A stretch of DNA of 37,927 bases, taken from IMG/VR virus record IMGVR_UViG_3300007541_005699, positions 1 to 37,927 of that record. The stretch is one strand, 5' to 3'. The DNA comes from a virus (taxonomy: Duplodnaviria; Caudoviricetes). This document shows positions 11,606-36,301 of this stretch, one piece after another (positions within the stretch are counted from its first letter, which is position 1; each line of letters opens with the position of its first letter). The notes beneath the pieces were generated by a model. The model worked only from the letters and a program-made list of their open reading frames with translations. It was not told the DNA's origin and made no database searches. Position numbers and translations under genes: made by a program.

Positions 11606-14600
11606 ATGGCTCAAGTAAGATTTTTAGATCAGGTTCCCGTAGGTGTATATAATGTTGATACAGCTGGAAGCGGCGGTGGAACAATTGATATTTACCAAAA
11701 CGGTGCATTAGTAAGTGCTAGTGTACCCTATATTAATATAAGTGGTTCAGCCGAATTATTTACATTCCAAACCTCAGGGGTAACAGTATATGTTTCATCC
11801 TCAGGCGTTGGATTTCCTTTTTCAGGTTCAGCTGTAATTACAGGATCTTTAGTGATCTCAGGATCTGATCCTCAACCAATTATAATTCAAAATTTACCAT
11901 ATGATGCAACCCCATCATATGTTGTAACATATAATACAGGAACTGGAGTATTTGAATATTCTGATATGCCATCTAGTGGTACTTCAGGTTCTTCTGGTTC
12001 ATCTGGTACTTCAGGTAGCTCAGGCTCATCAGGCACTTCTGGTTCTTCAGGAACTTCAGGCTCATCAGGCACTTCTGGTTCAAGCGGAACATCAGGTTCT
12101 TCAGGAACAAGTGGAAGCTCAGGCTCTTCAGGAACATCAGGTTCAAGTGGAACAAGTGGTTCATCAGGAACTAGCGGTTCTTCAGGTTCAAGTGGAACTT
12201 CGGGTAGCTCAGGTTCTTCAGGAACAAGTGGCTCATCAGGTACTAGTGGTTCATCAGGTACTAGCGGTAGCTCAGGTTCATCAGGTACAAGTGGCTCTTC
12301 AGGCTCATCAGGTACTAGCGGAAGTTCAGGCTCATCTGGCACTTCAGGCTCATCAGGCTCAAGCGGAACATCAGGTTCTTCAGGAACTTCAGGTTCTTCA
12401 GGAACTTCAGGTATAAACGGTAGTTCAGGTACTAGTGGCTCATCAGGAACCTCAGGTTCAAGTGGTTCATCAGGTACTTCAGGTTCATCAGGAACAAGTG
12501 GTTCATCAGGAACAAGCGGCTCTTCAGGCTCAAGTGGAACAAGCGGCTCTTCAGGCTCATCAGGTACAAGCGGCTCTTCAGGTAGTTCAGGTACTTCAGG
12601 TTCATCAGGCTCAAGTGGAACTAGTGGTTCTTCAGGTTCATCTGGAACATCAGGTTCATCAGGATCAAGTGGTACCTCAGGAAGTTCAGGTTCTTCAGGA
12701 ACATCAGGCTCAAGCGGAACTTCAGGCAGTTCTGGTACATCAGGTATTGATGGCTCATCAGGCTCATCAGGTACAAGTGGTTCTTCAGGTACAAGCGGTT
12801 CTTCAGGTTCATCAGGAACCTCAGGTTCATCCGGTTCTTCAGGAACTAGTGGTTCTTCGGGATCAAGCGGAACCTCAGGAAGTTCAGGTTCATCTGGAAC
12901 AAGTGGCTCATCTGGAACTTCAGGTTCCTCAGGTACAAGTGGCTCTTCAGGTTCAAGTGGCACTTCAGGTTCAAGTGGGTCTTCAGGAACAAGCGGCTCT
13001 TCAGGCTCAAGTGGAACAAGTGGAAGCTCAGGTACATCAGGTTCATCAGGAACTTCAGGCAGCTCTGGCACTTCAGGCATTGATGGTTCATCAGGTTCTT
13101 CAGGAACAAGTGGCTCATCAGGTACTAGCGGTAGTTCAGGTTCATCAGGTACTAGTGGTTCTTCAGGATCATCGGGCACATCAGGTATAAGTGGTATTAA
13201 TGGTACTTCAGGTTCAAGTGGAACCTCAGGCAGTTCAGGTACTTCAGGCTCATCCGGATCTAGTGGAACATCAGGTTCATCAGGTTCAAGCGGAACAAGT
13301 GGTTCAAGTGGAACATCAGGTAGCTCAGGTTCTTCAGGTACAAGCGGAAGCTCAGGTTCTTCAGGTACAAGCGGTAGCTCAGGAACTTCAGGTTCCTCTG
13401 GTTCTTCTGGTACATCTGGTTCTTCTGGTACATCTGGTTCATCAGGTACTTCAGGTTCCTCTGGAAGTAGTGGCACCTCAGGTATAAGTGGTGTTAATGG
13501 TACTAGTGGTTCTTCAGGCTCAAGTGGCACTTCTGGATCTAGTGGTTCATCAGGAACATCAGGTTCAAGCGGAACGAGTGGTTCATCTGGTTCATCCGGA
13601 ACCTCAGGCTCATCAGGTACAAGCGGCTCTTCAGGCTCAAGCGGAACTTCAGGTAGTTCAGGTTCATCAGGAACAAGTGGTTCATCAGGTTCAAGTGGAA
13701 CAAGTGGTTCATCTGGAACAAGTGGTTCAAGTGGATCATCAGGTACTAGTGGCTCAAGTGGTAGTAGCGGTACTTCAGGTATAAGTGGTGTTAACGGCAC
13801 TAGTGGTTCATCTGGTTCATCCGGAACCTCAGGTTCAAGCGGAACTAGTGGTTCTAGTGGTACTTCAGGTAGCTCAGGCTCATCTGGAACTTCTGGCTCA
13901 TCTGGCACTTCAGGCTCATCAGGTACATCTGGTTCAAGTGGCACCTCAGGAAGTTCAGGTTCATCTGGAACTTCAGGTTCATCAGGAACTAGTGGTAGTT
14001 CAGGTACTAGTGGTTCATCTGGAACAAGTGGTTCTTCAGGCTCATCAGGCACATCAGGTTCTTCTGGAAGCAGCGGAACATCAGGTATATCAGGTGTAAA
14101 TGGCACATCTGGCTCAAGTGGAACTAGTGGTTCAAGTGGAACCTCTGGTTCAAGTGGTACAAGCGGATCTTCTGGCTCATCAGGTACATCAGGTTCATCA
14201 GGCACATCTGGTTCAAGTGGTACTTCAGGTAGTTCTGGTTCATCAGGAACTAGTGGCTCAAGTGGAACAAGTGGTTCATCTGGAACTAGTGGTTCAAGTG
14301 GCTCTTCAGGCACTTCAGGCTCTTCAGGCACTTCAGGCTCTTCAGGCTCTTCAGGTACATCAGGTTCCTCAGGTACATCAGGTTCAAGTGGTTCAAGTGG
14401 TACTTCAGGTATAAGTGGTGTTAACGGCACTAGTGGTTCATCTGGAACTAGTGGTTCAAGTGGTACATCAGGAAGTAGTGGTTCAAGCGGAACAAGTGGT
14501 TCATCTGGTACATCAGGTTCAAGTGGAACCTCAGGTTCATCTGGTTCAAGCGGAACAAGTGGTTCATCTGGAACATCAGGTTCTTCAGGAACAAGTGGCT

Positions 14601-17600
14601 CATCAGGTTCTTCAGGAACAAGTGGCTCTAGTGGTTCAAGCGGAACATCTGGTTCAAGCGGAACAAGTGGTAGCTCAGGATCATCAGGTACTTCAGGTTC
14701 ATCAGGATCAAGCGGTACTTCAGGTATATCGGGAGTAAACGGAACTAGTGGTTCTTCAGGAACTTCAGGCTCATCAGGTACTAGTGGCTCATCTGGTACA
14801 TCAGGTAGCTCAGGTTCTTCAGGAACAAGTGGTTCATCCGGTTCAAGTGGAACTAGTGGTTCTTCAGGTACTTCAGGTTCAAGCGGTACATCAGGTAGTT
14901 CAGGTTCTTCAGGAACAAGTGGATCTTCTGGCTCAAGTGGAACTAGTGGGTCTAGTGGAACTAGCGGATCTAGTGGTACATCAGGTTCAAGTGGTTCAAG
15001 TGGCACTTCAGGTTCTTCTGGTTCTAGCGGTACTTCAGGTTCAAGCGGAACTAGTGGTAGCTCAGGTACTAGCGGTTCATCTGGAACATCTGGTAGTTCA
15101 GGTTCATCAGGTACAAGTGGAAGTTCAGGAACTTCCGGCTCATCAGGTTCATCAGGTACAAGCGGCTCTTCAGGCAGCTCAGGTACTTCAGGTATATCTG
15201 GCGTAAATGGTACGTCAGGCTCTTCAGGAACTAGTGGTAGTTCAGGTACTAGTGGTTCATCTGGAACAAGTGGAAGTTCAGGCTCATCTGGAACTTCAGG
15301 CTCATCAGGCTCATCAGGAACTTCAGGTTCAAGTGGAACTAGCGGATCTAGTGGTACATCAGGTTCAAGTGGTTCATCAGGCACTTCTGGTTCTTCAGGT
15401 TCTTCTGGAACATCAGGTTCAAGTGGCACCTCTGGTTCATCTGGAACATCTGGCAGTTCAGGTTCCTCAGGTACTTCAGGTAGTTCAGGTTCTTCTGGAA
15501 CAAGCGGTTCAAGCGGTTCATCTGGAACATCTGGTTCTAGTGGAACAAGTGGTTCATCAGGTTCTTCAGGAACAAGTGGCTCATCAGGTTCAAGCGGAAC
15601 CTCAGGTAGTTCTGGCACTTCAGGTTCTTCAGGGACATCTGGATCAAGTGGTTCATCAGGGACTAGTGGTTCAAGCGGCTCTTCAGGAACTAGTGGTTCA
15701 AGCGGAACTTCAGGCTCATCAGGAACAAGTGGAAGCTCTGGAACATCAGGTTCTAGTGGCTCATCAGGTACAAGCGGTTCTTCAGGCAGCTCTGGTACCT
15801 CAGGTATAAGTGGTGTGAATGGAACTAGTGGTTCATCAGGAACTAGTGGTAGTTCAGGTACATCAGGTTCAAGTGGTTCTTCAGGAACATCAGGAAGTTC
15901 AGGAAGCTCAGGAACAAGTGGTTCTTCAGGTACATCAGGCTCAAGCGGAACATCAGGCAGCTCAGGTTCAAGTGGAACCTCAGGTTCATCTGGTTCATCT
16001 GGAACTTCAGGCAGCTCAGGAACAAGTGGTTCAAGCGGAACTAGTGGCTCATCAGGCTCATCTGGTACTAGTGGCTCATCTGGTTCATCAGGAACTTCAG
16101 GTTCAAGTGGAACAAGTGGTTCATCTGGTACTTCAGGCTCATCAGGAAGTAGTGGTACTTCAGGTAGCTCAGGAAGTTCAGGTACAAGTGGCTCATCTGG
16201 TACTTCAGGTAGTTCAGGAACTTCAGGTAGCTCTGGTTCATCAGGAACTAGTGGCAGCTCAGGTTCAAGCGGAACTTCAGGTAGTTCTGGTACTTCAGGT
16301 TCAAGTGGAACCTCTGGTTCATCAGGTACAAGCGGCTCAAGTGGTTCTTCAGGAACTTCTGGCTCATCAGGCTCATCAGGTACAAGCGGCTCAAGTGGCA
16401 GCAGTGGTACTTCAGGTATAAGTGGTGTAAATGGAACTAGTGGTTCATCAGGAACAAGCGGTAGTTCAGGTTCTTCAGGAACATCAGGTAGTTCTGGTTC
16501 TAGTGGCACATCAGGTTCTAGTGGCTCAAGTGGAACTTCAGGCTCATCTGGTACTTCTGGAGCTAGTGGGGCTTCAGGAACAAGTGGTACTTCAGGAACA
16601 TCAGGTTCAAGCGGTTCAAGTGGAACAAGTGGTTCATCAGGAACTAGCGGCAGCTCAGGTTCAAGTGGAACTTCAGGTAGTTCAGGTTCTTCAGGTTCTT
16701 CAGGTTCATCTGGTTCTTCAGGTTCATCCGGTTCATCTGGTACTTCAGGAAGTTCAGGTTCATCTGGAACATCAGGCTCTTCAGGTACTAGTGGTAGCTC
16801 TGGAACCTCAGGTTCATCAGGCTCATCTGGAACCTCAGGTTCAAGTGGAACAAGTGGCTCTTCTGGAACATCAGGATCATCAGGTTCAAGCGGAACAAGT
16901 GGTTCTTCTGGTTCTTCTGGAACTAGTGGAAGTTCAGGAACAAGCGGTTCTTCAGGTTCAAGCGGAACAAGTGGTTCTTCAGGTTCTTCCGGAACCTCTG
17001 GTTCATCAGGATCAAGTGGTACTTCAGGTATAAGTGGTGTAAACGGAACTAGCGGTTCTTCAGGAACAAGTGGTTCAAGTGGCTCATCAGGTTCTTCAGG
17101 AACATCAGGTAGCTCAGGTTCATCAGGTACAAGCGGCTCTTCAGGTACATCCGGCTCTTCAGGTACTTCAGGTTCTAGTGGAACATCAGGTAGCTCAGGC
17201 TCATCTGGTACTTCAGGAAGTTCAGGTTCATCAGGAACTAGTGGTTCTTCGGGTACATCAGGCTCTTCAGGCTCAAGTGGTACTAGTGGCTCATCAGGTT
17301 CATCAGGAACAAGTGGTTCAAGCGGTACTTCAGGTTCTAGTGGCTCATCAGGAACATCGGGTTCATCAGGTACTAGTGGTTCAAGTGGCTCATCTGGAAC
17401 TAGTGGTTCAAGCGGTTCATCAGGAACATCTGGTTCATCTGGAACATCAGGTTCTTCAGGATCTAGTGGAACAAGTGGCTCTAGTGGCTCTTCAGGAACA
17501 AGTGGTTCAAGTGGTACTTCAGGTTCAAGTGGTTCATCAGGTACATCGGGCTCATCAGGATCAAGCGGTACAAGCGGAAGTTCAGGAACTTCCGGCTCAT

Positions 17601-20600
17601 CAGGTTCATCAGGTACAAGCGGCTCTTCAGGCAGCTCAGGTACTTCAGGTATAAGTGGTGTAAACGGAACATCAGGTTCTAGTGGTACATCAGGCTCAAG
17701 TGGTTCAAGCGGTACTAGTGGCTCAAGTGGTAGCTCTGGTACTTCTGGGTCAAGTGGCTCAAGCGGAACAAGCGGTTCAAGTGGAACATCAGGCTCTTCA
17801 GGAACAAGCGGTTCTTCAGGCAGTTCAGGAACTTCTGGTTCTTCTGGAAGTAGTGGTACTTCCGGTTCATCAGGAACATCTGGTTCATCAGGTTCATCAG
17901 GAACAAGCGGCTCATCAGGTACCAGTGGCTCAAGTGGAAGCTCAGGTTCAAGTGGAAGTTCAGGCACTTCAGGTTCTTCAGGTTCTAGCGGAACATCAGG
18001 ATCAAGCGGTTCTTCAGGAACAAGCGGTTCTTCAGGAAGTTCAGGAACATCAGGAAGCTCAGGCACATCAGGTTCAAGTGGAACAAGCGGTTCATCTGGA
18101 ACTAGCGGAAGTTCAGGTTCAAGTGGAACATCAGGTTCTTCAGGCTCAAGCGGAACAAGCGGTAGTTCAGGTTCATCAGGAACAAGCGGTTCTTCAGGTA
18201 CTAGTGGTAGCTCTGGAACTTCAGGTTCTAGTGGCTCATCAGGAACTTCAGGTTCATCAGGATCAAGTGGTACCTCAGGTATAAGTGGTGTAAACGGAAC
18301 TAGCGGTTCTTCAGGTACTAGTGGTAGTTCTGGAACTTCAGGTTCAAGTGGAACAAGCGGTTCAAGTGGTTCTTCTGGTACTTCAGGTAGTTCTGGTTCT
18401 TCAGGAACTAGTGGCTCATCAGGAACATCAGGTTCATCAGGAAGTTCAGGAACAAGTGGTTCAAGCGGAACAAGTGGTTCAAGTGGTTCATCTGGTACTT
18501 CTGGTTCTAGCGGTTCATCAGGAACATCAGGTTCTTCTGGTTCTTCAGGAACATCAGGAAGTTCAGGTTCAAGCGGAACAAGTGGTTCTAGCGGAACATC
18601 AGGAAGTTCTGGAACATCAGGATCTAGTGGTTCTTCAGGAACATCTGGTTCTTCAGGTTCTTCAGGAACATCAGGTAGTTCTGGTACTAGTGGTTCATCA
18701 GGAACTAGTGGTAGTTCAGGTACTTCAGGATCATCTGGTTCGTCTGGTACTTCAGGAAGCTCAGGTTCTTCAGGTACATCAGGTTCAAGCGGAACTTCAG
18801 GTTCTAGTGGATCAAGTGGTACATCAGGTAGCTCAGGATCAAGCGGTACTTCAGGTTCATCAGGTACTTCAGGTTCAAGTGGAACTAGCGGTTCATCTGG
18901 TTCTTCAGGAACATCAGGTATATCAGGTGTTAATGGAACAAGTGGTTCAAGCGGAACTTCTGGTTCAAGCGGCACTTCAGGTTCTTCAGGAACTAGTGGC
19001 TCAAGTGGTTCATCTGGAACTTCAGGCTCATCTGGCTCAAGTGGAACAAGCGGTTCTTCAGGCACATCCGGCTCATCTGGCACTTCAGGTTCATCAGGTA
19101 GCTCAGGTACTTCTGGTTCATCTGGAAGCAGTGGCACTTCAGGTTCTTCAGGAACATCAGGTTCAAGTGGCTCATCTGGAACATCAGGTTCAAGCGGTTC
19201 AAGTGGAACAAGTGGTTCATCTGGTACTTCTGGTTCTTCTGGAAGTAGTGGCACTTCAGGTTCTTCAGGAACATCAGGTAGTTCAGGTTCTTCTGGTACT
19301 TCTGGATCATCTGGTTCATCAGGAACTAGCGGTTCAAGTGGTACTTCAGGTTCAAGTGGAACTTCAGGAAGTTCAGGTACTTCAGGTTCATCAGGTTCTA
19401 GTGGAACATCAGGATCAAGCGGTTCATCAGGAACATCTGGTTCATCTGGAACATCAGGTTCTAGCGGAACATCAGGTTCTTCAGGATCTTCTGGAACAAG
19501 CGGATCTTCAGGTTCATCTGGAACATCTGGTTCATCTGGTACTTCAGGGTCTTCAGGATCAAGTGGAACAAGTGGTAGCTCAGGCTCATCAGGAACTAGC
19601 GGTTCATCAGGAACTAGCGGTTCATCAGGAACAAGTGGAAGCTCTGGAACATCAGGTTCTAGTGGCTCATCAGGTACAAGTGGCTCAAGTGGTAGCTCTG
19701 GTACCTCAGGTATAAGTGGTGTAAATGGAACATCAGGTAGCTCTGGAACTTCAGGTTCTAGTGGAACTAGCGGTTCAAGTGGTACTTCAGGATCTTCAGG
19801 TTCTTCTGGAACAAGTGGATCAAGTGGTTCATCCGGAACAAGTGGTAGTTCAGGAACAAGTGGTTCAAGCGGAACTAGTGGTTCATCAGGCTCATCTGGA
19901 ACAAGCGGTTCTTCAGGTTCCTCAGGCACATCAGGTAGTTCAGGTACTTCAGGTTCATCTGGTACAAGCGGTTCATCTGGATCTTCTGGAACAAGCGGTT
20001 CTTCAGGTTCATCAGGTACTTCTGGATCTTCTGGAACATCAGGTTCAAGCGGAACTTCAGGATCAAGCGGCTCAAGTGGAACAAGCGGAAGCTCAGGATC
20101 AAGTGGAACCTCTGGTTCAAGCGGAACAAGTGGTTCAAGCGGAACAAGTGGCTCTTCAGGAACATCAGGATCAAGTGGTTCATCAGGAACATCAGGTTCA
20201 TCCGGATCAAGCGGAACAAGTGGTTCTAGTGGAACATCAGGATCAAGTGGAACATCAGGTAGTTCAGGTTCTTCAGGAACAAGCGGATCAAGTGGCTCTT
20301 CAGGAACTTCAGGATCAAGTGGAACAAGTGGAAGTTCAGGCACATCAGGATCTAGTGGTTCTTCTGGAACAAGCGGTTCATCTGGTTCTTCAGGAACAAG
20401 TGGAAGCTCTGGAACTTCAGGTTCAAGTGGATCTTCTGGAACATCAGGTTCAAGCGGAACAAGCGGTTCAAGCGGAACTTCAGGTTCAAGTGGATCTTCA
20501 GGAACATCAGGTATAAGTGGTGTTAATGGAACAAGCGGTTCTTCAGGTACTAGTGGTAGCTCTGGAACATCAGGTTCTAGTGGAACAAGCGGTTCAAGTG

Positions 20601-22060: not shown

Positions 22061-22068
22061 TATTTATA
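22060..22068 (+). promoter_or_regulatory. Candidate late promoter ATATTTATA
   Basis: Overlaps the stop of the giant gene, 4 nt before ATG 22073. Confidence 0.55.
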
Positions 22069-25321: not shown

Positions 25322-25323
25322 AT

Positions 25324-25352: not shown

Positions 25353-25358
25353 ATAGTT

Positions 25359-25940
25359 ATGTATTCAAGACCTATATTTGATCCTAATTTAGAAGTTGAT
25401 CAAACTAATTATTATTGGTTCGAAAATGGATTTACTTCAAAAGAAGTAACAGAAATCCTAGAACTTACAAAAACTTATGAATTTCAACAAGGTACTATTA
25501 TATCTGGTAACACTGGAGATATAAGAAATAGTAGTATTAAATGGCTTGCTCCTGATGAAAAAACATCATGGGTTTATGATCGTTTAATGGGATGTGTTAA
25601 AGAAGCCAATAATGTTTGGAAATTTAATCTTAATTCTATTTTAGATGATATTCAATATACTGAATATAGAGGTGGAGGAGGTCATTATGATTGGCATATA
25701 GACATAGGTCCAGGACCAATTTCCCACCGTAAAATTTCAGTTATTGTCCAACTTTCAAATCCTTCAGAGTATACTGGAGGTACTTTAGAAATAAGTTCAG
25801 GAAGTAATACTCAAAAAATATCTAATAAAAAAGGAGCCGTAATTGTATTTCCTTCATTTTTACAACATCGAATAACTCCTGTAGCCTCAGGTCTAAGAAA
25901 AAGTTTGGTATTGTGGGCTGGTGGAGAACATTATAAATAA
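25359..25940 (+). CDS. 2OG-Fe(II) dioxygenase (prolyl-hydroxylase/PKHD-like)
   Basis: HYDWHID (HxD), RKISVIVQL, YTGG, FPSFLQHRITPV (distal His) and RKSLVLW (2OG-binding Arg). Confidence 0.9.
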   Translation: MYSRPIFDPNLEVDQTNYYWFENGFTSKEVTEILELTKTYEFQQGTIISGNTGDIRNSSIKWLAPDEKTSWVYDRLMGCVKEANNVWKFNLNSILDDIQYTEYRGGGGHYDWHIDIGPGPISHRKISVIVQLSNPSEYTGGTLEISSGSNTQKISNKKGAVIVFPSFLQHRITPVASGLRKSLVLWAGGEHYK

Positions 25941-25941
25941 A

Positions 25942-26931
25942 ATGATTGATAATCTTGTTAAATTAGTTTTAGATAAAGGAGGTTCTATATCTCATTTAAA
26001 AATTCCTTCAATTGATAGTAAAGGAACAGGTTTATGTAATCCTTCTATTTTTGTAGATAATGATGGAACTCTTTTACTTAATTTACGAAATGTAGGATAT
26101 GTTCTTTATTTATGTGAAAATGAACAAAAATTTCAAGGACGTTGGGGACCATTAGCATATCTCCACCCAGAAGAAGATCCCCATTTACGAACAGATAATT
26201 TTCTTTGTATTTTAGATCCTAAAACCTTAGAAATTAAATCTTACAATAAAGTAAACACATCAGAATTGGATATTGAGCCTGTTTGGGATTTTATAGGACT
26301 AGAAGATGCTAGAGTAGTTCGTTGGGATGGTATTTTATACATTACAGGTGTTAGAAGAGATACTAAGCCAAATGGAGAAGGACGAATGGAATTATCTGAA
26401 ATAGATAATTTTAAAACTGCTAATGAAATTTCAAGAGTCAGAATAGAACCACCTAACGACCCTGATTCTTATTGTGAAAAAAATTGGATGCCTATTAATG
26501 ATATGGATTACTGTTATGTTAAATGGGCTAATCCAACTGAGGTAGTTAAAGTAGATCCTATTAAAGGAACTAGCGAAACCATATTTTTAGGAAATTTTAA
26601 AGAAATAAGTCCAAACCATGATGCTAGAGGAGGCTCATCAGTAGTTAAATGGAAAAACTACAGATTATGCGTTGTTCATGAAGTTGATTTTTGGATGAAT
26701 GAAAATAATAATAAAGATGGTATTTATAACCATCGTATTATTGTTTGGGATGAAAATTGGAATATTGTAAAATATTCTGATGTTTTTAAATTTATGACAG
26801 GACGAATTGAATTTATTTGTGGAGCAGCAGTTGTTGATAATGATTTAGTTTTAACTTATGGATTCCATGATAATGCAGCTTTTGCATTAAGAATCCCTGA
26901 AAATGTTGTAGAGGAATTAATCAATGGATAA
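25942..26931 (+). CDS. Five-bladed beta-propeller glycoside hydrolase/phosphorylase-like protein (GH130-like)
   Basis: CNPSIF, GLEDARVV, EKNWMP, RGGS and IEFICG motifs; ATG 25942 preferred over the overlapping GTG at 25921. Confidence 0.7.
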   Translation: MIDNLVKLVLDKGGSISHLKIPSIDSKGTGLCNPSIFVDNDGTLLLNLRNVGYVLYLCENEQKFQGRWGPLAYLHPEEDPHLRTDNFLCILDPKTLEIKSYNKVNTSELDIEPVWDFIGLEDARVVRWDGILYITGVRRDTKPNGEGRMELSEIDNFKTANEISRVRIEPPNDPDSYCEKNWMPINDMDYCYVKWANPTEVVKVDPIKGTSETIFLGNFKEISPNHDARGGSSVVKWKNYRLCVVHEVDFWMNENNNKDGIYNHRIIVWDENWNIVKYSDVFKFMTGRIEFICGAAVVDNDLVLTYGFHDNAAFALRIPENVVEELING

Positions 26932-28153
26932 AATATTAGAAAACTTTATAAACCATCCTTACAATCCAGAAACTAATTTTTTGTTTGGAGAACAGTATTA
27001 TCAAGAAGGACATAAAGCTGCTGCTTTAACATTATTTTTAAGAACAGCAGAATATGGAACTGATAAAGATTTAGTGTATGAAGCCTTACTTAAAGTAATG
27101 TTATGTTTAAAAGAATTAGAAGGACGACCTCATTCAACAAGAGGTGCTATTTTAAATGCTATTACTTTTGATCGTGAACGACCTGAGGCTTATTATCATT
27201 TAAGTTGTGATCATCAAATTAAAGGTGAATGGCAAGAATCTTATTTAGCAGCTGTTCAAGGACTAGATAAATTAAATAATATGAAACCAACATTAACTAG
27301 TGTTAACTTTCCTGGTGAATATGCTTTGTTATTTCAAAAAGCAGTAGCAAGTTGGTGGATTGGATATTGTGATGAATCAAGAGAATTATTTAATCACTTA
27401 CTAAAAGAATATTCAATGCGCTCTGAATTTGTAGAAGCTTGTTATACTAATTTATCTAAAATTCATGGAATCCAATATCCTTCTTTATTATATACAAAAG
27501 AAGAATACCCAAAACTTAAATACAAATTTAAAAACTCAGATAAAATTGAAAAAAATTATTCCCAAGCATACCAGGATCTTTTTGTTTTGTCTATGTTAGA
27601 TGGAAAAGAAAAGGGAACTTACGTTGAAATAGGAGCATCAGACCCTTATTACAATAGTAATACAGCTTTGTTAGAAAAAGATTTTGGTTGGACCGGAGTA
27701 TCATTAGAAATTAACGAAGAAGAAGTAAATAAATTTAATTTAGAACGTTCTAATAAATGTATTCTTCAAGATGCTACAACTGTTAACTATGAAGAGTTAT
27801 TTAATAATAACGGCTTAACTGAGGTTATAGACTATCTACAGGTTGATGTTGAACCCGCAGAAGTAACGTTTAATGTTTTACTTTCTATACCTTTTGATAA
27901 GTATAAATTTAGAGTAATTACATATGAACATGATTATTATTTAAATCATCCTGTTGATTATAGAAAACTTTCAAGAAAATTTTTAGAAGCTCAAGGTTAT
28001 AAAATGATTGTAGGAGATATTGCTCCTGATTCAAATAGTACTTTTGAAGACTGGTGGGTACACCCTGAACTAGTAGACTCAGAAATTATTACAGCAATGG
28101 TTGATTACTCAGAAAAAATTAAAAGAGCAGATCATTATATATTAAATGGGTAA
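26924..28153 (+). CDS. TPR-like domain fused to an FkbM-type methyltransferase
   Basis: Helical N-terminal half (RPEAYYHL); NYSQAYQDLFV, YVEIGASDP, SNTALLE, IDYLQVDVEP, ITYEHD and EDWWV. Confidence 0.8.
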   Translation: MDKILENFINHPYNPETNFLFGEQYYQEGHKAAALTLFLRTAEYGTDKDLVYEALLKVMLCLKELEGRPHSTRGAILNAITFDRERPEAYYHLSCDHQIKGEWQESYLAAVQGLDKLNNMKPTLTSVNFPGEYALLFQKAVASWWIGYCDESRELFNHLLKEYSMRSEFVEACYTNLSKIHGIQYPSLLYTKEEYPKLKYKFKNSDKIEKNYSQAYQDLFVLSMLDGKEKGTYVEIGASDPYYNSNTALLEKDFGWTGVSLEINEEEVNKFNLERSNKCILQDATTVNYEELFNNNGLTEVIDYLQVDVEPAEVTFNVLLSIPFDKYKFRVITYEHDYYLNHPVDYRKLSRKFLEAQGYKMIVGDIAPDSNSTFEDWWVHPELVDSEIITAMVDYSEKIKRADHYILNG

Positions 28154-28991
28154 TCAAGACTGGAAAATAACACCTTATGCAACTATGGAGGTTACAACTA
28201 ACCTTCCTAAAAAAGGTTGTGTAGTTGACTGTATTTTCTGTCCTCAACGAACCTTAGTTAAAAATTATAATGGAACTCGTCATTTATCTTTAGAAGACTT
28301 TAAGAGAGCAGTAAATAAAATTCCAACAGAAGTTAGAATCACATTTGCAGGATTTACTGAACCTTGGACTAATAGACATTGTACAGATATGTTACTTTAT
28401 GCTTATGAAAAAGGCCATAGAGTAGCAGCTTTTACTACAGGAGTAGGAATGACAGTAGAAGATGTTGAAAGACTTAAAGATATTTCTTTTGATGAAGGAC
28501 CAAATGCAGGGTTTGTTTTACATTTACCTGACCAAGAAAGACTAGCTAAACATCCTATAACCCCTCGTTATATAGAAGTAATTGAAGCTTTTGGAGTACA
28601 TCAAGATTCTTTCAATAAATTTTATTTAATGTCTATGGGTAGTGTTCATGAAAAGGTAAAACATGTTTTTGATCGAGTTGCTAACCCTGAAATGTGGTCT
28701 AGAGCAGGTAATTTAATTGGAGAAGCAATTATGAAACCTGAACTATTAAATGTTAAAGAACTATTTAGATCAGTATATCATGGAGAGTCTCCTAAAACTT
28801 GTGGTTGTATAGAAAATTTGTATCATAACGTGATGCTTCCAAATGGAGATGTATCTTTATGTTGTATGGATTATTCTTTAAGTTATATTATAGGAAATAT
28901 GTTTGAACAAGAATATGAAGAAATAATTCCAAAATTAAACACTTGTTATGATATGTGTCGTTATTGTGAAAATGGAGTAAACCCTAATTAA
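28146..28991 (+). CDS. Radical SAM enzyme with SPASM/twitch-like C-terminal domain
   Basis: CVVDCIFC (CxxxCxxC), FAGFTEP, PNGDVSLCC and terminal CYDMCRYC. Confidence 0.88.
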   Translation: MGNQDWKITPYATMEVTTNLPKKGCVVDCIFCPQRTLVKNYNGTRHLSLEDFKRAVNKIPTEVRITFAGFTEPWTNRHCTDMLLYAYEKGHRVAAFTTGVGMTVEDVERLKDISFDEGPNAGFVLHLPDQERLAKHPITPRYIEVIEAFGVHQDSFNKFYLMSMGSVHEKVKHVFDRVANPEMWSRAGNLIGEAIMKPELLNVKELFRSVYHGESPKTCGCIENLYHNVMLPNGDVSLCCMDYSLSYIIGNMFEQEYEEIIPKLNTCYDMCRYCENGVNPN

Positions 28992-28992
28992 A

Positions 28993-29994
28993 ATGAAACC
29001 AATTATAATAATATCCGCTTACTGTCCTGATGATGAAAGAAAACTAATACTTGAAAATTGTGTTAATTCTCTTCAACCAATTAGAAAAGATTTTGATATT
29101 TTAATTTCAACTCATTCTTATATTCCTGAACATATTGGAAAAAAAGTAGATTTTGTTTTTTATGATGCTAATAATGATTTAATTTATGATTGGGACTTAT
29201 TAAATACTCCTTGGTTCTCACCTTCCCCTGGGTTAGTTATAGTTTCTTCTTTAATCTCTAATTTTAGTACTTACTCTGCTTGTAATAGAATTATTATGGG
29301 TGGTTTTGGTATAGCTAAAAACTTTGGATATGAAAAAGCACATTATATAGACTATGATGCTATTATTAATGATTATTCTGATTTTTATGAAAACAATAAA
29401 TTACTAGATAATTATGTCGCTATCCAATATAAAAAAGAATATAGAAACTATGAACATAATATTGAAGGAGGAGTAGGAGTATTCCAGGCTGCAAATTTAA
29501 ATAAAGTAAATAAGATTTTTACAACATATAATGAAAAAGAACTATTAGAAGTATTAAAAAATGCTCCTAATAAAACAAATGAAATTATATACCAGGATCT
29601 ATATAAACTAGATGGAGAAGAAATTTTATATAAAAATTGGGATTCTCTTATAGAAAAAGGAAATATATTTAATCAATCTATTTCTACTCAAAAAGATGAT
29701 TTAAATGATTGGACAGTTCCTTATTATGATACTAAAACAGGTAAAATAAATGTTATAGCTTGGAACTCTAAAAAAGATTATCCTATTAATGTAAGTTTTA
29801 TTATTAATCAAGAAAAAATTGTAACATTAAATAATGTTAATAAATTTGAATGGAAAACATCTGAAGTAGATGACATTAATAATATTAATGAAATACTAAT
29901 TATTGTTGATAATAAAATTAAAAACCATGTAATTATTAATACTCCTGAATTAAAAGAAAAATTTATAAGAAATAATCAAACTCAATATAAATAA
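28993..29994 (+). CDS. Putative GT-A fold glycosyltransferase-like protein
   Basis: N-terminal IIIISAY strand, DILISTH and YIDYD (DxD); context among sugar-modifying genes. Confidence 0.5.
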   Translation: MKPIIIISAYCPDDERKLILENCVNSLQPIRKDFDILISTHSYIPEHIGKKVDFVFYDANNDLIYDWDLLNTPWFSPSPGLVIVSSLISNFSTYSACNRIIMGGFGIAKNFGYEKAHYIDYDAIINDYSDFYENNKLLDNYVAIQYKKEYRNYEHNIEGGVGVFQAANLNKVNKIFTTYNEKELLEVLKNAPNKTNEIIYQDLYKLDGEEILYKNWDSLIEKGNIFNQSISTQKDDLNDWTVPYYDTKTGKINVIAWNSKKDYPINVSFIINQEKIVTLNNVNKFEWKTSEVDDINNINEILIIVDNKIKNHVIINTPELKEKFIRNNQTQYK

Positions 29995-29997: not shown

Positions 29998-30864
29998 ATG
30001 ATATATTTTGAATTAAAAAATAAAATTGCTACTCCTGAAAGTCCTGAAGTTTTTACTTTTAAAGTAGAATTAGATCCTAAGTTACAAAACATTTTAAAAG
30101 AACATTTAATTATTAAGTTTTGCACTATTGGAAAAAACAACCCAGAAGGATGGGAAACTAAAATTACCCCAGGATGTTGGAGTGAATGGAATGGAGGAGG
30201 TAATAGTAGATGGGACATTATTATTATGGATAATAATCGAAATATTTTATTTACTAGAGAATATAATTCTCTTTATGATGGTAGTGATTTAGACAAAGCA
30301 TTTAATTTATATTGTAAAATAAATAAACAAACAAAAGGAATAGTGATAGGATCCCATGATGGCCTTTTTGGACACTGGGTACAATCAGTAAGAGATAATG
30401 AAACAGAATGTTTAATTATTGAAGGATCAACCCCCCAATTTATAAAACTAACTGAAAATTATAATAAATATAAAAATTGTACATTAATAAATGAAATTGT
30501 TACTGTAAAAGGAGGTCCTGTAGAATGGCATACTGGGGGTGAAGGGTTTACTGATTCAATACATAAGGATGTTAATTTAAAGTTTTTAAAAGATGAAGAA
30601 ATTAAAACAGAAATAAAAAATAGTATTTCTATAAATGATTTAATTGAAAAACATAATTATCAAAATTATGATTGGCTTCATACAGATATTGAAGGATATG
30701 ATGCTGAATTAATTATGGGATTAAAATATTTACCTAAATTTATAATTTTTGAAAACGAACATTCTAAAACATTAGGAACTTATATACATGTTAAAAAATA
30801 TTTAGAACATTTAAATTATAATGTTATTGAAATAGGTATTGACACATTAGCAGTAAAACAATGA
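29998..30864 (+). CDS. FkbM-like methyltransferase with N-terminal extension
   Basis: IVIGSHDG, LIIEG, WLHTDIEGYD and IIFEN. Confidence 0.75.
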   Translation: MIYFELKNKIATPESPEVFTFKVELDPKLQNILKEHLIIKFCTIGKNNPEGWETKITPGCWSEWNGGGNSRWDIIIMDNNRNILFTREYNSLYDGSDLDKAFNLYCKINKQTKGIVIGSHDGLFGHWVQSVRDNETECLIIEGSTPQFIKLTENYNKYKNCTLINEIVTVKGGPVEWHTGGEGFTDSIHKDVNLKFLKDEEIKTEIKNSISINDLIEKHNYQNYDWLHTDIEGYDAELIMGLKYLPKFIIFENEHSKTLGTYIHVKKYLEHLNYNVIEIGIDTLAVKQ

Positions 30865-31814
30865 TAGTATTTGATAAATTTATAGAAAACCAAAAGGGAA
30901 TTCAATTTAGTTCTTTAGAATCCCAAGAAATTGTTATTAAAATAATAGATGGATATACTGAACTTTGTTCATATGAAAGAAAAATGGATGTTATTCCAAA
31001 TATAAACTATTATTTTTTTCATCCTGTTGATGTATATCACAGACGGTTTGAAATTTGGGATAATTTAGAACAAAATTTATTATTAAAAATAGATACAACT
31101 AAATTAGAAAATGTAAATTTAAAAAATGAAGATAAATTTAATAAAATAAACAAATTTGGTAAAATATATAATATAAAAGATTCTAGTGTAGGTTTACCTT
31201 TATATGAAATATTTGTTACAAAAATATATGATAAATTTTTTAAAGTAGAAGAAGGAGATACTGTTGTAGATATTGGAGGAAATATAGGTTTATTTTCATA
31301 TTATGCTTTATGTAAAGGAGCTTCTAAAGTTTATTGTTTTGAACCATCTCCAAAAACCTGTAATATAATAAAATCTAATTTTAATTTTAATAATCTTATT
31401 ATTGAAGAAGCTGCTGTTTCATCACAAGATGGTTATGTTGATTTTTTTGAATCTAATTCAAATTCAATTGGCTCTTCTATATTTTCGACCCCACACCCAT
31501 CAACCCCAGAAAAGGTTGAGAAAATAACTTGTAAATCTATTAATTTTAATAACTATATAGAAACAAATAATATAGAAAAAATTGATTATTTTAAAATAGA
31601 TTGTGAAGGTGCTGAATATGAAATTATTAAAAGTTTAGATGAACAATATCTTACCAATAATATAAATAAAATTTGTTTAGAATATCATTTTAATACTGAT
31701 GGTAAAATAAATACTATTTTAAATAAATTAAAAAAATGTAATTTTAATATTAATTTTGAATTTGGAGATTATCAAATTAATGATGAATTAGGAATAATAT
31801 ACGCTTATAAATAA
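30861..31814 (+). CDS. FkbM-family methyltransferase
   Basis: VVDIGGNIGLFS, VYCFEP, IDYFKIDCEGAEY and LEYH. Confidence 0.9.
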   Translation: MIVFDKFIENQKGIQFSSLESQEIVIKIIDGYTELCSYERKMDVIPNINYYFFHPVDVYHRRFEIWDNLEQNLLLKIDTTKLENVNLKNEDKFNKINKFGKIYNIKDSSVGLPLYEIFVTKIYDKFFKVEEGDTVVDIGGNIGLFSYYALCKGASKVYCFEPSPKTCNIIKSNFNFNNLIIEEAAVSSQDGYVDFFESNSNSIGSSIFSTPHPSTPEKVEKITCKSINFNNYIETNNIEKIDYFKIDCEGAEYEIIKSLDEQYLTNNINKICLEYHFNTDGKINTILNKLKKCNFNINFEFGDYQINDELGIIYAYK

Positions 31815-31823: not shown

Positions 31824-32546
31824 ATGAAAAATAAACAATTTAATCTACAAGAATTTTTAGCCCCTTATGTGTCTTCTTTAGAAATCTCAGGCTTACCTCG
31901 TTTAAAATATTATGAGTATGTGATTGAAAAATTAGTTGCCTTAAATCGTCCTATCACTATAGTAGAAACAGGTACTATGTGGTCTAGTGTTGAAGGCAAC
32001 ATGGGTGCTTTTACTTATGTTTTTGGGGACTTAATTAAAAACTATACAGGAGGCAAATTAATTACTGTAGATATTTCCGAAGAATCTATAAATAATTGTA
32101 AAGAAACTACTAAAGAATTCTCAGAGGTTATTGAATATGTTGTTTCGGATTCTGTTACTTATTTAGAATCTTTAAGTGATGAAGAAGTTCAACAGATAGA
32201 CTTTATTTACTTTGATTCATTTGATCTTTCAGTACCTGATCCTATCCCTTCACAATTACACCATTACAGAGAATTAGCTGCTGTATACAAACGTTTAAAA
32301 CATGATGTTTATTTGGCCGTTGATGATAACTTTTTACCTGGTGGATGGATTGAATGGTTCATTTTTGCTGACGATGGAAGTCGAAATATAGTTGGTCAAA
32401 CAAGGTATGATGTTGGACATTTTCGAGTTTTAGGTAAAGGAACATTAATTGATTGTTTTTTAATGGATAATGGTTGGAAACGTAATGATGAAATATTAAA
32501 TTTAGGTCACCACTATAGTTATATTTTAGGTTATGAAAGAATTTAA
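31824..32546 (+). CDS. Class I SAM-dependent methyltransferase
   Basis: IVETGT, ITVDI, DSVTYL, IDFIYFDS, AVDD and GKG. Confidence 0.75.
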   Translation: MKNKQFNLQEFLAPYVSSLEISGLPRLKYYEYVIEKLVALNRPITIVETGTMWSSVEGNMGAFTYVFGDLIKNYTGGKLITVDISEESINNCKETTKEFSEVIEYVVSDSVTYLESLSDEEVQQIDFIYFDSFDLSVPDPIPSQLHHYRELAAVYKRLKHDVYLAVDDNFLPGGWIEWFIFADDGSRNIVGQTRYDVGHFRVLGKGTLIDCFLMDNGWKRNDEILNLGHHYSYILGYERI

Positions 32547-33366
32547 TGAGGTAAAATATATCTTAGACCAATTTTATCAAAATCATAACACATATAAACT
32601 AATTTCACCAAACACATTCTCACCCTCCTCAGTATATAATAATGCTGAGGGGTTAGGAGATGCTATTATACTAACATCAATTCTTCCTTACTTAAAAGTA
32701 AGTAATAAACTTTTAAATGAAATAGGTGAAAAATATATTAATAGAAAAAATCTAACAAATGATTCAAATTTTTGTGTAACAGAATTAGCACAAAATGATT
32801 GGGGAGGTGGGCATGCTATTCAACGATTTCAAAAATCATTAGGACTACCTGTAGAAATTAAACCCAAAGGAAAAATTAATTATAATCCTAGTTTAAAAGA
32901 AAAAAATAAAGTTTTTATACATTTACAAAATAATACTGATTGGAAACGTACAATACCTAACAGTTTAGATATAGAGCAAATAAAAATAATATATGATTTT
33001 TTTAAGATTAATACTCACTTTACTCCTTATTATTATAATAATGATTTAACTATAAATGAAATGATAGAAGTAATGGAAACTTGCGAGTATTTTTTAGGTA
33101 TAGATAGTGGTCCAATGCATGTTGCTGCTGCTTTAGATTTAAAATCTGTTATTATTATAAACGATCCTAATCAGTTAGTATATTTGCCTAAAATAAAAGA
33201 ATGTGAATTACCTAATTCTGAGTGGTTATACCCACAAAATATTCATTTAAATAGAAGTGGAAAAACAGAATTAATTCCATATTTTACACTGCAAACTTTA
33301 ATAAGTGCTTTTAAAGGAGATATTTATCCTTATTTTACTGACTTATATTTAAATATCTTTATATGA
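32533..33366 (+). CDS. GT9 (heptosyltransferase-like) glycosyltransferase
   Basis: GLGDAII and FLGIDSGPMHVAAAL signature motifs. Confidence 0.8.
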   Translation: MKEFNEVKYILDQFYQNHNTYKLISPNTFSPSSVYNNAEGLGDAIILTSILPYLKVSNKLLNEIGEKYINRKNLTNDSNFCVTELAQNDWGGGHAIQRFQKSLGLPVEIKPKGKINYNPSLKEKNKVFIHLQNNTDWKRTIPNSLDIEQIKIIYDFFKINTHFTPYYYNNDLTINEMIEVMETCEYFLGIDSGPMHVAAALDLKSVIIINDPNQLVYLPKIKECELPNSEWLYPQNIHLNRSGKTELIPYFTLQTLISAFKGDIYPYFTDLYLNIFI

Positions 33367-35645
33367 AAAATAAACCAAAAATTTATGTCCATAGTTCTTA
33401 TATAGGAACAACAGGTTACAACCAACATACTAGAGATTTTTTTAGAGAAGTATCTAAACATTTACAACTAAAAATCAGAAACTTTACTGTTGGAAAAACT
33501 TGGGAAGGTTATAATGAAACTCCTCATGATAATGAACCTTATATAAATGAAATAGATAAGTCTATTTTATATGAACAAATACTTTGGAATAATGATGGAG
33601 GAAGAGATAACCATAAAATTTATCCTTCATCTAATAAAGAATTTTTACATGATTTAAATATAGTTTTATGTGAAACAGACCATCATTTATTTTATGATAA
33701 ATACAATGGTCCAAAAATAGCATATAATGTTTGGGAAACAACAAAACAACCTGAAGAATTTTTTAATAAATTAAAAGAATTTGATGAATTATGGGTTCCA
33801 TCAAAATGGCAAAAAGAAGTAACAGTAAAACAAGGATATGATCCTAACAAAATTAAAGTAGTTCCTGAAGGTGTAGACACCAATACATTCTACCCAGAAG
33901 AAACAACTCATGAATTAACATCAGATGGTAGATTTAAATTCTTTTTAGCAGGTAGATGGGATTATAGAAAATCAACTAAAGAAATTATTGAAACATTTTT
34001 AAATACTTTTACAAATGATGAACCTGTTGATTTAATTGTTTCTATAGATAATCCATTTTCAGGTGATGGATTAGAGACAACTGAAAATAGATTAAAATAT
34101 TATAATTTAGATGATGAACGAATTAAAATAGTTCATTTTCCTGTAAGAGAAGATTATATTAAAATATTAAAATCATGTAATGTATTTTTATCTTGTGCTC
34201 GTTCTGAAGGTTGGAATTTACCTTTAATTGAGGCAATGGCTTGTGGTATACCTTCAATTTACTCTAACTGTTCAGGCCAGCTTGAATTTGCTGAAGGAAA
34301 AGGAATACCAGTAAATATTTTAGGAGAAAAACCAGCAGATGATTCTTCATACAATCATTTTAATGGTTATACAGGTAATTATTATGAACCAGATTTTAAT
34401 CATTTACAATTAATGATGATGTATTCTTATATGAAGTATGATGAGTGTAAGAAAAAAGCATTAAAAGAGTCAGAAGAAATTAGACATAAATTTAGTTGGG
34501 AAAAAGTAGGAGAAATTGGTTATAAAACTATATTAAATTTTTATGAAAAAAATAAAGATAAAAACTCCCAATTAAAAAATGAAATAAAAATTGATTATAT
34601 TGATGGTCCAAAAGTAGAAATAGTAGGAAACAAATTAGAACAATATCATGTTGAATTTTTAGATGAAAAAAATAATGTTATCTATGAAGACACTATTACA
34701 AATAACATGTGGACTAAATGTTCTAGAAAATATTATACTAAATGGAAAATTAAAGTTAACGGAAATATAATAGATGAACTTAATCTAAATAATAAACGAG
34801 CATTAATAAGTTTAGAATCAAGATCAATAGGTGATACAATAGCATGGACACCGTATGCTGTTGATTTTGCTAAAAAACATAATTGTAAAGTTATTTTAAG
34901 TACATTCCATAATTATTGGTTTAAAGAAAAAGAAGAATATAAAGATATTGAATTTATTGAACCAGGAACATCTACCCTTTGTGATGTTGTTTATCGAATA
35001 GGATGGTTTAAAGGAGATTCTGGTAAATGGGACCAATTTGATTTATATCCTAATTACCCACAAACCCAACCTTTACAAAAAACAGCCTCAGACATTCTAG
35101 GTTTAGAATTTAAAGAATTAAATTATGGTATTAATTTTACCTCTAAATCAAAACCTTCTAAAATTGATTATATAGTTATTGCCCCTGAATCAACTTCAGG
35201 TTGTAAAGAATGGCCTTATGATAGTTGGGTTGTATTATCTAAAATGTTACGTGAATTAGGATATACTGTAGTAACTCTTACAAATAAATCTTACAATATA
35301 AAAGGTAATTTAAATATTAATGGTAAAACATTAAATGAATCTATTAATGTTTTATACAATGCTAAATTTTTAATTGGTTTAAGCTCAGGATTATCTTGGA
35401 TTAATTGGGCTTTAGGAAAACAAACAGTAATGATAAGTGGTTTTTCTCAAAAAGATCATGAATTTCAATCTAATAACATAAGAATTCAAAATGAATATGC
35501 TTGTAATTCATGTTGGCAAAACACAAACTTTATTTTCGATCCAGGAAATTGGGATTGGTGTCCTATTTGGGAAGGAACAGATAAACAACATATTTGTGAA
35601 AAATCAATCTCACCTTTAACAGTATTTAACTCACTACCTTTATGA
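33363..35645 (+). CDS. GT4 glycosyltransferase fused to a TibC/Aah-like autotransporter O-heptosyltransferase
   Basis: N-terminal half: GRWDYRK and SEGWNLPLIEAMACG (Ex7E). C-terminal half: SIGDTIAW.PY, IGLSSGLSWINWA, ISGFS, and the CNSCW...WCP...C iron-finger cysteines as recalled for TibC/Aah. Confidence 0.88.
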   Translation: MKNKPKIYVHSSYIGTTGYNQHTRDFFREVSKHLQLKIRNFTVGKTWEGYNETPHDNEPYINEIDKSILYEQILWNNDGGRDNHKIYPSSNKEFLHDLNIVLCETDHHLFYDKYNGPKIAYNVWETTKQPEEFFNKLKEFDELWVPSKWQKEVTVKQGYDPNKIKVVPEGVDTNTFYPEETTHELTSDGRFKFFLAGRWDYRKSTKEIIETFLNTFTNDEPVDLIVSIDNPFSGDGLETTENRLKYYNLDDERIKIVHFPVREDYIKILKSCNVFLSCARSEGWNLPLIEAMACGIPSIYSNCSGQLEFAEGKGIPVNILGEKPADDSSYNHFNGYTGNYYEPDFNHLQLMMMYSYMKYDECKKKALKESEEIRHKFSWEKVGEIGYKTILNFYEKNKDKNSQLKNEIKIDYIDGPKVEIVGNKLEQYHVEFLDEKNNVIYEDTITNNMWTKCSRKYYTKWKIKVNGNIIDELNLNNKRALISLESRSIGDTIAWTPYAVDFAKKHNCKVILSTFHNYWFKEKEEYKDIEFIEPGTSTLCDVVYRIGWFKGDSGKWDQFDLYPNYPQTQPLQKTASDILGLEFKELNYGINFTSKSKPSKIDYIVIAPESTSGCKEWPYDSWVVLSKMLRELGYTVVTLTNKSYNIKGNLNINGKTLNESINVLYNAKFLIGLSSGLSWINWALGKQTVMISGFSQKDHEFQSNNIRIQNEYACNSCWQNTNFIFDPGNWDWCPIWEGTDKQHICEKSISPLTVFNSLPL

Positions 35646-36301
35646 TAAATTTAGAAAATTTTAATTGGGGTCCTACCTCAGAATGGTATAAAGACCAAAT
35701 TACTAAAGAAATGTTTATAGAAAACATTTATGAAAAATGCTTTCCTGTTGAAGAAGGAGACATAATAGTAGACTTTGGTGCTTCTATTGGAGATTTTATT
35801 TGGTCTATTAAAAATAAAAATCCAAAACATTGTTTTGTTATTGAACCTTTAGATTCTTATTTCGATATATTACAAGAAAATTTATTAGGTTATCCTGTTT
35901 CTTTTACTAAAGCTTTTCTTAGTCAAGAAGAAACAACAAAAGTAGATTGGGATGGGTTAACAAGTGAATGTAGAAGTTTAACTTTTAAACAATTTATAAA
36001 AGAAAATAATCTTAAACATATTGATTTTTTAAAAACAGATTGTGAAGGAGGTGAATATAGTATTTTTACAGAAGAAAACCTAGACTACATTATTAATCAC
36101 GTCAAAAAAATTTCAGGTGAATGGCATTTAAGTACTCCTGAATTAAAACAACAATTTAGAAATTTTAGAGACAATTATTTATCTAAGTTTAATAATTTTG
36201 AAGTTTATTCTGTTGATGGAATTGATATTAAGTGGGATTTATGGAATGAACATTTTTTAGAATATTATAATGAGGTATTAATTTACATAGATAACCGTTA
36301 A
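35642..36301 (+). CDS. FkbM-family methyltransferase
   Basis: IVDFGASIG, IEP, IDFLKTDCEGGEY and GEWH. Confidence 0.85.
   Translation: MINLENFNWGPTSEWYKDQITKEMFIENIYEKCFPVEEGDIIVDFGASIGDFIWSIKNKNPKHCFVIEPLDSYFDILQENLLGYPVSFTKAFLSQEETTKVDWDGLTSECRSLTFKQFIKENNLKHIDFLKTDCEGGEYSIFTEENLDYIINHVKKISGEWHLSTPELKQQFRNFRDNYLSKFNNFEVYSVDGIDIKWDLWNEHFLEYYNEVLIYIDNR

Follow-up and report, generated by a model that had tools for sequence, protein, structure and literature searches.

The stretch of DNA analysed here, IMG/VR virus record IMGVR_UViG_3300007541_005699 (37,927 nucleotides; hereafter the window), comprises the entire record, a 37.9-kb virus fragment in which genes for a prohead protease, a scaffold and a T4-type major capsid protein are followed by PhoH and neck genes and then by the tail sheath. 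We were concerned with the slot between neck and sheath, which holds two Gly-X-Y repeat proteins (F1 and F2), a lectin-like gene and a block of 11 enzyme genes, one of which fuses a GT4 domain to a homologue of the protein glycosyltransferases TibC and Aah. An original prediction from this sequence had placed the fibres between the neck genes and the sheath, and this was borne out by homologues on either side. Comparison with other phages and with bacteria lends good support to a pairing of the TibC-like domain with F1, its predicted substrate. The main features of the slot are as follows.

10632 to 11573, plus strand: gene of the neck/tail-terminator region, gp15-like in its placement and bounding the variable slot on the left; its homologues precede the slot in the phages immuto and Mel-JY01, and it had no PHROG or Pfam match
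11578 to 11586, plus strand: ATATTTATW motif upstream of F1, common to structural genes and, from its distribution, a likely late promoter
11606 to 22060, plus strand: F1, 3,484 aa, in which a run of 1,053 Gly-X-Y triplets lies between an N-terminal anchor (120 aa) and a C-terminal fibre domain, both conserved
11978 to 21454, plus strand: uninterrupted proline-free repeat of F1 with GIS-GVN nodes (triplet count)
22060 to 22068, plus strand: ATATTTATW motif upstream of F2 (motif distribution)
22073 to 24433, plus strand: F2, 786 aa, a Pro/Thr/Gln collagen of 202 triplets (PF01391, E 2e-80) with a C-terminal Peptidase_S74 chaperone (PF13884, E 6e-18)
24437 to 25321, plus strand: LamG/concanavalin A-like protein, probably a lectin or the tip of a fibre (PF13385, E 7e-12; phrog_8510 virion structural protein, E 1e-15)
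33363 to 34574, plus strand: GT4 domain of the GT4-TibC fusion protein (PF00534, E 7e-12; phrog_2170)
34575 to 35645, plus strand: TibC/Aah-like O-glycosyltransferase domain of a repeat-associated subfamily (TIGR04414; 4RAP; residues and tree)
37362 to 37927, plus strand: tail sheath, cut by the contig end, right anchor of the slot (phrog_23, E 9e-8; 42-55% to annotated sheaths)

A serine-rich giant repeat and a TibC-like enzyme

The repeat of F1 forms a single unbroken run of 1,053 triplets (3,159 residues), of which 603 are GSS and 413 GTS. Serine and threonine together number 2,050, or 97% of the X and Y positions, in agreement with the roughly 2000 originally predicted, while proline is absent. 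The Y position is Ser in 1,034 of the 1,053 triplets, and Gly recurs at every third residue throughout, the register being kept even across the GIS-GVN nodes. Node spacing (33-37, 52, 68-71 and 88-89 triplets) grows toward the C-terminus and fits multiples of ~18 triplets (R 0.86, a value reached by 0 of 1,000 random sets). Similarly stepped spacing was seen in relatives L125 and L130; it may reflect a ruler or a history of duplication. At its C-terminus F1 matches phrog_17490 (E 4e-44), has 217 longer homologues and is 54% identical to an immuto protein annotated as tail-fibre-like. A profile of this region gave only weak fibre matches among structures (8OND, E 5e-4), as well as viral clusters without names, and the N-terminus had no match among INPHARED phages.

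The TibC-like domain scored 217.5 bits against TIGR04414 (curated cut-off, 200) and aligned over its whole extent to PDB entry 4RAP (E 1e-37). In the available part of Yao et al. (PMC4358343), Asp110 is the catalytic base, Thr226, Lys230 and Trp305 contact the donor, and four Cys bind iron. Alignment to 4RAP indicated that the window enzyme keeps D110, T226, K230, W305 and all four iron-finger Cys; the Pro300 position is Ser, as in Aah. All 45 viral rows kept Asp110. A quick tree of 113 domains grouped 33 rows in a clade (SH-aLRT 100) best matched by E. coli Aah, hereafter the classic clade, and the window enzyme fell outside it. Members of the BAHT family generally show over 50% homology to TibC or Aah and have an adjacent autotransporter; the window enzyme fits neither description, being 32% identical to E. 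coli Aah with no autotransporter in the window. Because BAHT-like residues are kept while two defining features fail, we file the enzyme as a putative sister subfamily of BAHT, predicted to work like one. BAHT enzymes act as dodecamers and transfer heptose to Ser from ADP-heptose; TibC itself modifies Ser, not Thr.

Co-occurrence of enzyme and repeat in phages and bacteria

The link between the F1 repeat and the TibC-like domain passed, in phages, the co-occurrence check that had been proposed along with the original prediction. From 240 neck-gene loci, 37 were taken by length of contig, and 36 records were analysed. Enzyme and repeat were both present in 11 and both absent in 19, three records had the enzyme only and three the repeat only. 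One of the 11 double positives (G029) has a single 4-triplet match. The three enzyme-only records are 22-48% complete; of those with the repeat alone, G002 and G003 break off within the fibre, G002 in the repeat itself, and G010 has a completeness of 22%. Locus L084 breaks off within its fibre. Three complete records, that of immuto among them, hold neither element.

Records anchored on the enzyme contained the repeat in 5 of 10 cases in a first set and in 14 of 15 in a second. Records anchored on the repeat, drawn from 3 of the 64 parts of IMG/VR, contained the enzyme in 13 of 23 cases, and in four of the five that are at least 90% complete, unrelated 66-69 kb phages included; the fifth (G129) carries a Gly-Thr-Thr repeat and lacks the enzyme. 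In G026 and G027 the repeat lies 32 kb from the enzyme, such that the two co-occur without adjacency. Across 17,877 triplets from 80 viral loci, the Y position was Ser in 85% and Thr in 3%, whereas X was Ser in 44% and Thr in 43%. Repeats of the (Gly-Thr-Thr)n type were observed at 9730 (minus strand) of L392, a 58-kb phage without the enzyme, and at 11989 (minus strand) of L328, beside the enzyme in a Bdellovibrionota genome.

An independent check in bacteria gave the same outcome. The sample consisted of the best 80 of 544 GTDB loci (genomes and metagenome-assembled genomes), of which 79 had a full domain (L336 was dropped), and loci were split into classic and non-classic by bit score to Aah. 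Repeats of the GTS/GSS type were present in the fetched DNA of 28 of 38 non-classic loci, compared with 0 of 41 classic loci. The bacterial repeats are short (6-53 triplets) and lie in tails or linkers of lipoprotein-like and secreted products. In the chromosomal loci, 6-50 triplets are carried by open reading frames that seem to begin with a signal or lipoprotein sequence, in most cases no more than 2 kb from the enzyme. This co-occurrence is the strongest evidence pointing to the triplet as the acceptor. On bacterial chromosomes at L318, L331, L329, L337, L322, L326 and L347 the TibC subfamily is paired with small proteins that look exported and have short GTS/GSS tails, several of which end in poly-Asp. 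These pairs are candidates for an undescribed bacterial O-glycosylation system.

The enzyme block and the second fibre

The 11 enzyme genes had been described as tightly coupled, and intergenic gaps of -20 to +9 nt confirm it. No hydrophobic segment was found in any of the 11 products (maximum KD19, 1.12), nor any membrane or signal segment. Besides the GT4-TibC fusion, the block comprises the following genes (HMM, hidden Markov model).

25359 to 25940, plus strand: 2-oxoglutarate (2OG)-Fe(II) oxygenase (HMM, E 5e-15)
25921 to 26931, plus strand: GH130/GT108-like beta-propeller, a mannoside phosphorylase or transferase fold (predicted fold)
26924 to 28153, plus strand: TPR-like region (TIGR02795, weak) and FkbM-like methyltransferase (PF05050, 22.6 bits; cut-off, 22.7)
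28146 to 28991, plus strand: radical SAM/SPASM enzyme (PF04055, E 2e-6, just under cut-off; PF13186, E 3e-5; CxxxCxxC)
28993 to 29994, plus strand: GT-A-fold glycosyltransferase-like protein (predicted fold)
29998 to 30864, plus strand: FkbM-like methyltransferase (PF05050, E 2e-6)
30861 to 31814, plus strand: FkbM methyltransferase (TIGR01444, E 2e-30)
31824 to 32546, plus strand: Methyltransf_24-like methyltransferase (PF13578, E 8e-5, under cut-off; phrog_24975)
32533 to 33366, plus strand: GT9-like protein, not of the TibC type (PF01075, E 2e-7 over 35 aa; alignment to the TibC profile limited to 38 columns)
35642 to 36301, plus strand: FkbM methyltransferase (TIGR01444, 41.6 bits; cut-off, 37.7)

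The identities first given to these enzymes all hold by HMM or predicted fold, some of them weakly (the radical SAM gene and those at 26924 and 31824 lie under cut-off). The PF05050 cut-off for FkbM was passed by the products at 29998, 30861 and 35642 and was marginal for 26924, while 31824 belongs to another family. For the 25921 product no HMM matched and a PDB sequence search gave nothing; its model (pLDDT 88, the predictor's confidence score) resembled 7FIP and 6Q4Z in Foldseek (E 2e-8 for each; TM about 0.55; 13-17% identity), and its homologues occur fused to FkbM or GT25. The 28993 product likewise had no HMM match. Its model (pLDDT 93) matched TarS, LgtC, hyaluronan synthase and glycogenin (E about 1e-5), and it carries a DxD-like motif (D-Y-D at 120-122; consensus E-Y-D), with no family assignable. 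Searches with the GT4 and FkbM domains gave generic matches only. No clear role could be seen for the radical SAM/SPASM gene at 28146-28991.

We then compared 76 enzyme clusters, drawn from 109 loci of at least 12 kb with 10-kb flanks; homologues were recognised by similarity to the window's own copies, and the counts are thus lower bounds. The TibC-like gene was accompanied by GT4 in at least 46 clusters, GT-A in at least 33, methyltransferases in at least 24 and the oxygenase in at least 14. The GH130-like gene was found in at least 4, radical SAM in at least 3 and GT9 in at least 1. The core of the set consists of the TibC-like and GT4 domains only. A fixed 11-gene unit was rejected since the accessory genes vary among clusters; the single locus originally proposed, with substrate and enzymes joined, is likewise not supported, enzyme and fibre lying up to 32 kb apart. 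Other sugar genes occupy the same slot in relatives, among them Galf mutase, epimerases, an NDP-sugar C-methyltransferase and GT25 (61 of 82 unlabelled reading frames were scanned). It is plausible, with about even odds, that the accessory genes elaborate a fibre glycan. In larger phages (L025, L035 and L043) the GT4-TibC gene is also found in the opposite orientation to the genes around it, a hint that the cassette is mobile.

F2 differs from F1 in composition. The claim that hydroxy-amino acids largely fill the X and Y positions of both fibres is false for F2, whose triplets are 39% Ser/Thr: X is Pro in 60, Y is Thr in 111 and Gln in 72, and there are only 6 Ser. Since F2 is nearly free of Ser and TibC acts on Ser rather than Thr, F2 was rejected as a TibC substrate, and the proposal that both fibres serve as substrates fails for this one. 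The 2OG oxygenase was found in all 6 TibC clusters that contain an F2-type collagen and in 8 of the 70 that do not. Because it accompanies every such cluster, it probably serves F2, notwithstanding that all F2 prolines are at X; F2 is probably served separately by this enzyme, and perhaps also by a Thr-directed transferase. The gene that follows F2 had been called lectin-like, and its PF13385 match agrees.

Of ten occurrences of the ATATTTATW motif, eight fall in the 60 nt that precede a gene start, a zone that covers 4.7% of the window, and none lies within the enzyme block, which may be transcribed by read-through from the F2 motif.

Proposed fibre glycosylation and competing readings

We put the probability that the TibC-like enzyme O-glycosylates the Y-position serines of F1 at about 0.72. 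F1 would be a late virion protein, as its upstream motif, position and fibre-type termini suggest. Since TibC modifies Ser and Y is so consistently Ser in viral triplets, the near-invariant Y-position Ser would be the acceptor. In the cytoplasm of the host, the TibC-like domain would place the first sugar, from a host nucleotide-sugar, on Ser of the Gly-Ser/Thr-Ser triplets; its extension and capping would fall to the fused GT4, the neighbouring transferases and the methyltransferases. The triple helix rises 0.286 nm per residue, so that F1, on trimerising into a collagen-type helix, would have a repeat up to ~0.9 micrometre long, in which sugar would do the work of hydroxyproline and charge pairs, both missing from F1. 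The accessory enzymes are a swappable set that would vary the glycan between phages. As originally proposed, the glycan may be methylated, stabilise the triple helix and have a shielding role. More tentatively, and at a confidence well short of even, the TibC sister family may be widespread and read Gly-X-Ser, aquatic phages using it to build micrometre-long proline-free collagen with a helix held by ~1,000 glycosylated Y-Ser per chain beneath a swappable coat, and bacteria using it for short tags.

It is likely that the phage sugar-coats a probable giant virion fibre, yet several observations weigh against this scheme. The association among neck-gene records (Fisher p 2e-4) is uncorrected for kinship, phage counts not being independent of ancestry. 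Half of the first enzyme-anchored set lacked repeats (four IMG/VR misses are 15-40% complete), as 10 of the 23 repeat-anchored records lacked the enzyme. In the 636-kb LR756504 the enzyme is present and a 4-triplet match is absent, and G136 (148 kb, 84% complete) carries long repeats but lacks the enzyme. Among closed gp15-to-sheath slots, 10 of 35 held the enzyme without a repeat in the slot; these loci stop at 10 kb, cannot hold long fibres and therefore gauge adjacency only. About six of the 28 repeat-bearing bacterial loci look like binned phage contigs, the remaining loci including chromosomes of Methylobacter, Methylomicrobium, Polaromonas and Arenicellales. Nothing ties the window's GT9, radical SAM and GH130-like genes to the fibre, because they are rare near TibC. 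With regard to the helix, the F1 repeat has two Asp as its only charged residues (no Lys, Arg or Glu) and so lacks the imino acids and charge pairs that stabilise collagen; no trimerisation domain was identified at either end of F1, and its C-terminus falls in no named family. Arg286, which in the same part of PMC4358343 contacts adenine N1, confers ADP-sugar specificity and is required for TibC activity, is replaced by Ser in the window enzyme. Finally, no gmhA was found in five large phage records.

The last two points bear on the sugar. Arg286 is present throughout the classic clade (33 of 33 rows) compared with 6 of 45 viral rows, and heptose, the sugar originally named, is not supported as stated. 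Given the loss of this adenine-reading residue and the placement of the enzyme outside the classic clade, heptose is possible, at no better than even odds. Epimerases were present in three of the five large phage records, far from the enzyme. Among 81 Flavobacteriales genomes, 33 had an ADP-heptose adenylyltransferase scoring over cut-off and each of these also matched gmhA strongly, so that heptose would be available in the likely host order. By calculation, heptose on every Y-Ser of F1 would add 199 kDa to the 285-kDa chain.

The strongest competing reading accepts glycosylation of the repeat by the TibC-like enzyme and dispenses with the triple helix, Gly-X-Ser being a motif on a mucin-like bottle-brush or polyproline-II strand. 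The short bacterial triplets feed this reading, since they suggest a glycosylation motif rather than a helix in tails and linkers where a collagen rod is unneeded; so do the scarcity of charge in the 1,053 triplets, the lack of Pro and the unrecognised F1 ends. A Gly register unbroken over 3,159 residues, nodes included, argues the other way. Moreover, the trimeric S74 chaperone terminates the GSS/GTS fibres of relatives L030, L096, L098, L100 and L308, and in Mel-JY01 and L045 a single register accommodates both GTS and Gly-Pro-X triplets. We consider the helix-free strand unlikely, if a serious contender.

In a second alternative, the target of the enzyme block, or of the greater part of its accessory genes, is host lipopolysaccharide (LPS) or capsule, changed so as to exclude rival phages, the fibre neighbourhood being a hot spot of gene exchange. 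GT9, GT-A and FkbM families are established in LPS loci, the accessory genes vary freely, and a non-structural promoter is possible in the 37-nt gap at 25322-25358. Clusters of glycosyltransferases in phages have also been interpreted in print as modifying the host surface (PMC7824862, section 3.4.10). TibC and Aah, however, are protein glycosyltransferases, the enzymes are without membrane or signal segments, and the link of the subfamily to GTS/GSS recurs in bacterial chromosomes and across 32 kb. We regard this reading as improbable for the block as a whole; it is doubtful, though worth entertaining, for the accessory genes, and quite improbable for the TibC domain. Hypermodification of phage DNA is very improbable: phage glycosyltransferases and 2OG oxygenases can modify DNA (PMC12619734, in the part available), but these enzymes lie in a virion-gene region, no base-modification partner was observed in the window, protein is the substrate of the TibC fold, and co-occurrence with the repeat would be left unexplained. 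That the giant repeat is an assembly artefact or non-coding expansion, as its low-complexity DNA and a frame-breaking 1-nt gap in F1 of a second assembly (IMG/VR locus L062) might suggest, is refuted to near certainty by the absence of any repeated 90-mer in 9.4 kb, by scrambled codons with a GC3 of 0.13 like that of neighbouring genes, by the 99.86% agreement of that assembly with window 632-21571 over 20.9 kb (28 mismatches besides the gap), and by an F1-like reading frame directly downstream in 63 of 80 neck-gene loci (not dereplicated; 11 lack it and 6 end too soon).

Each part of the preferred reading, a glycosylated F1 fibre, has precedent in BAHT enzymes, mycobacteriophage virion glycans, BclA and phage collagens. 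The TibC-TibA and Aah-AIDA-I systems, so far as the available part of PMC4358343 describes them, share with the window whole-domain homology, the catalytic Asp, the Thr/Lys phosphate contacts, Trp305, the iron-finger Cys and a nearby long Ser-rich repetitive protein. The window enzyme differs in being viral, GT4-fused and without Arg286, and its partner is a Gly-X-Ser triplet repeat rather than a beta-helix autotransporter. Phage-encoded glycosyltransferases modify mycobacteriophage virion proteins (Freeman et al. 2023, as cited in PMC12619734 and PMC10877033), there at capsid and tail tube C-termini, whereas the window would have a 1,000-site fibre acceptor and another enzyme family. Collagen-like filaments glycosylated on hydroxy residues are known from Bacillus spores (BclA; PMC10470788) and from the cuticle of Riftia (PMC11766948), with the stability of Riftia collagen tied to glycosylated Thr, at the Y position according to a cited title. 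They use Thr, unlike F1 with its Ser at Y, no Pro and almost no charge, and F2 is the closer match. The collagen of BclA contains Pro. The E. coli O157:H7 prophage side-tail collagens EPclA/B are phage Gly-X-Y fibres with a demonstrated triple helix; in the part of PMC3368898 available they are short, stable as unmodified recombinant proteins and described with no enzyme cassette. A literature search of listings and abstract openings, most subscription journals lying outside it, returned nothing on TibC homologues of phages or on a serine collagen. A paper on moraphages reports four core glycosyltransferases and mentions virion glycosylation; neither collagen nor heptose was found in its main text (PMC12619734).

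Large-phage glycosyltransferase clusters are usually read as host-surface or DNA modifiers; here one viral protein can be named as the predicted substrate, together with an enzyme open to testing. If correct, the pairing would add a common group of aquatic phages (we estimate ~2,600 repeat-bearing and ~1,800 enzyme-bearing stretches in IMG/VR) to the mycobacteriophages as makers of glycosylated virions, challenge the rules of collagen stability, and offer glyco-engineering a soluble enzyme with a three-residue acceptor motif. On the more tentative reading given above, it would amount to a third route to collagen stability and to a phage-made glycocalyx. It could be tested with short acceptor-like peptides in cultured Methylobacter and with the named phage Mel-JY01.

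The closest named relatives by major capsid protein are Flavobacterium phage immuto (Immutovirus; 54% identity) and Mel-JY01 (49%), which makes a Bacteroidota host likely. Both share the head-neck-sheath gene order of the window. Immuto lacks the enzyme and repeat that the window has, while Mel-JY01 has both, outside the gp15-sheath slot. No paper on Mel-JY01 was found in our literature search. Its GTS/GSS frame (PP395634.1, 1-3052; L058, 2-3052) runs on the plus strand upstream of a GT4-GT-A-TibC fusion and is unannotated in GenBank, which has minus-strand hypotheticals there; a further unannotated frame of 754 aa runs off the opposite end of the record. Ahead of the window's sheath gene, at 36332-37304, are two small conserved genes (236 aa, Ser/Thr-rich, and 83 aa) found clade-wide with or without the cassette. 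Between the capsid and neck genes, at 5501-7179, an amidinotransferase/arginine dihydrolase-like gene is coupled to a phosphatidylserine decarboxylase-like gene.

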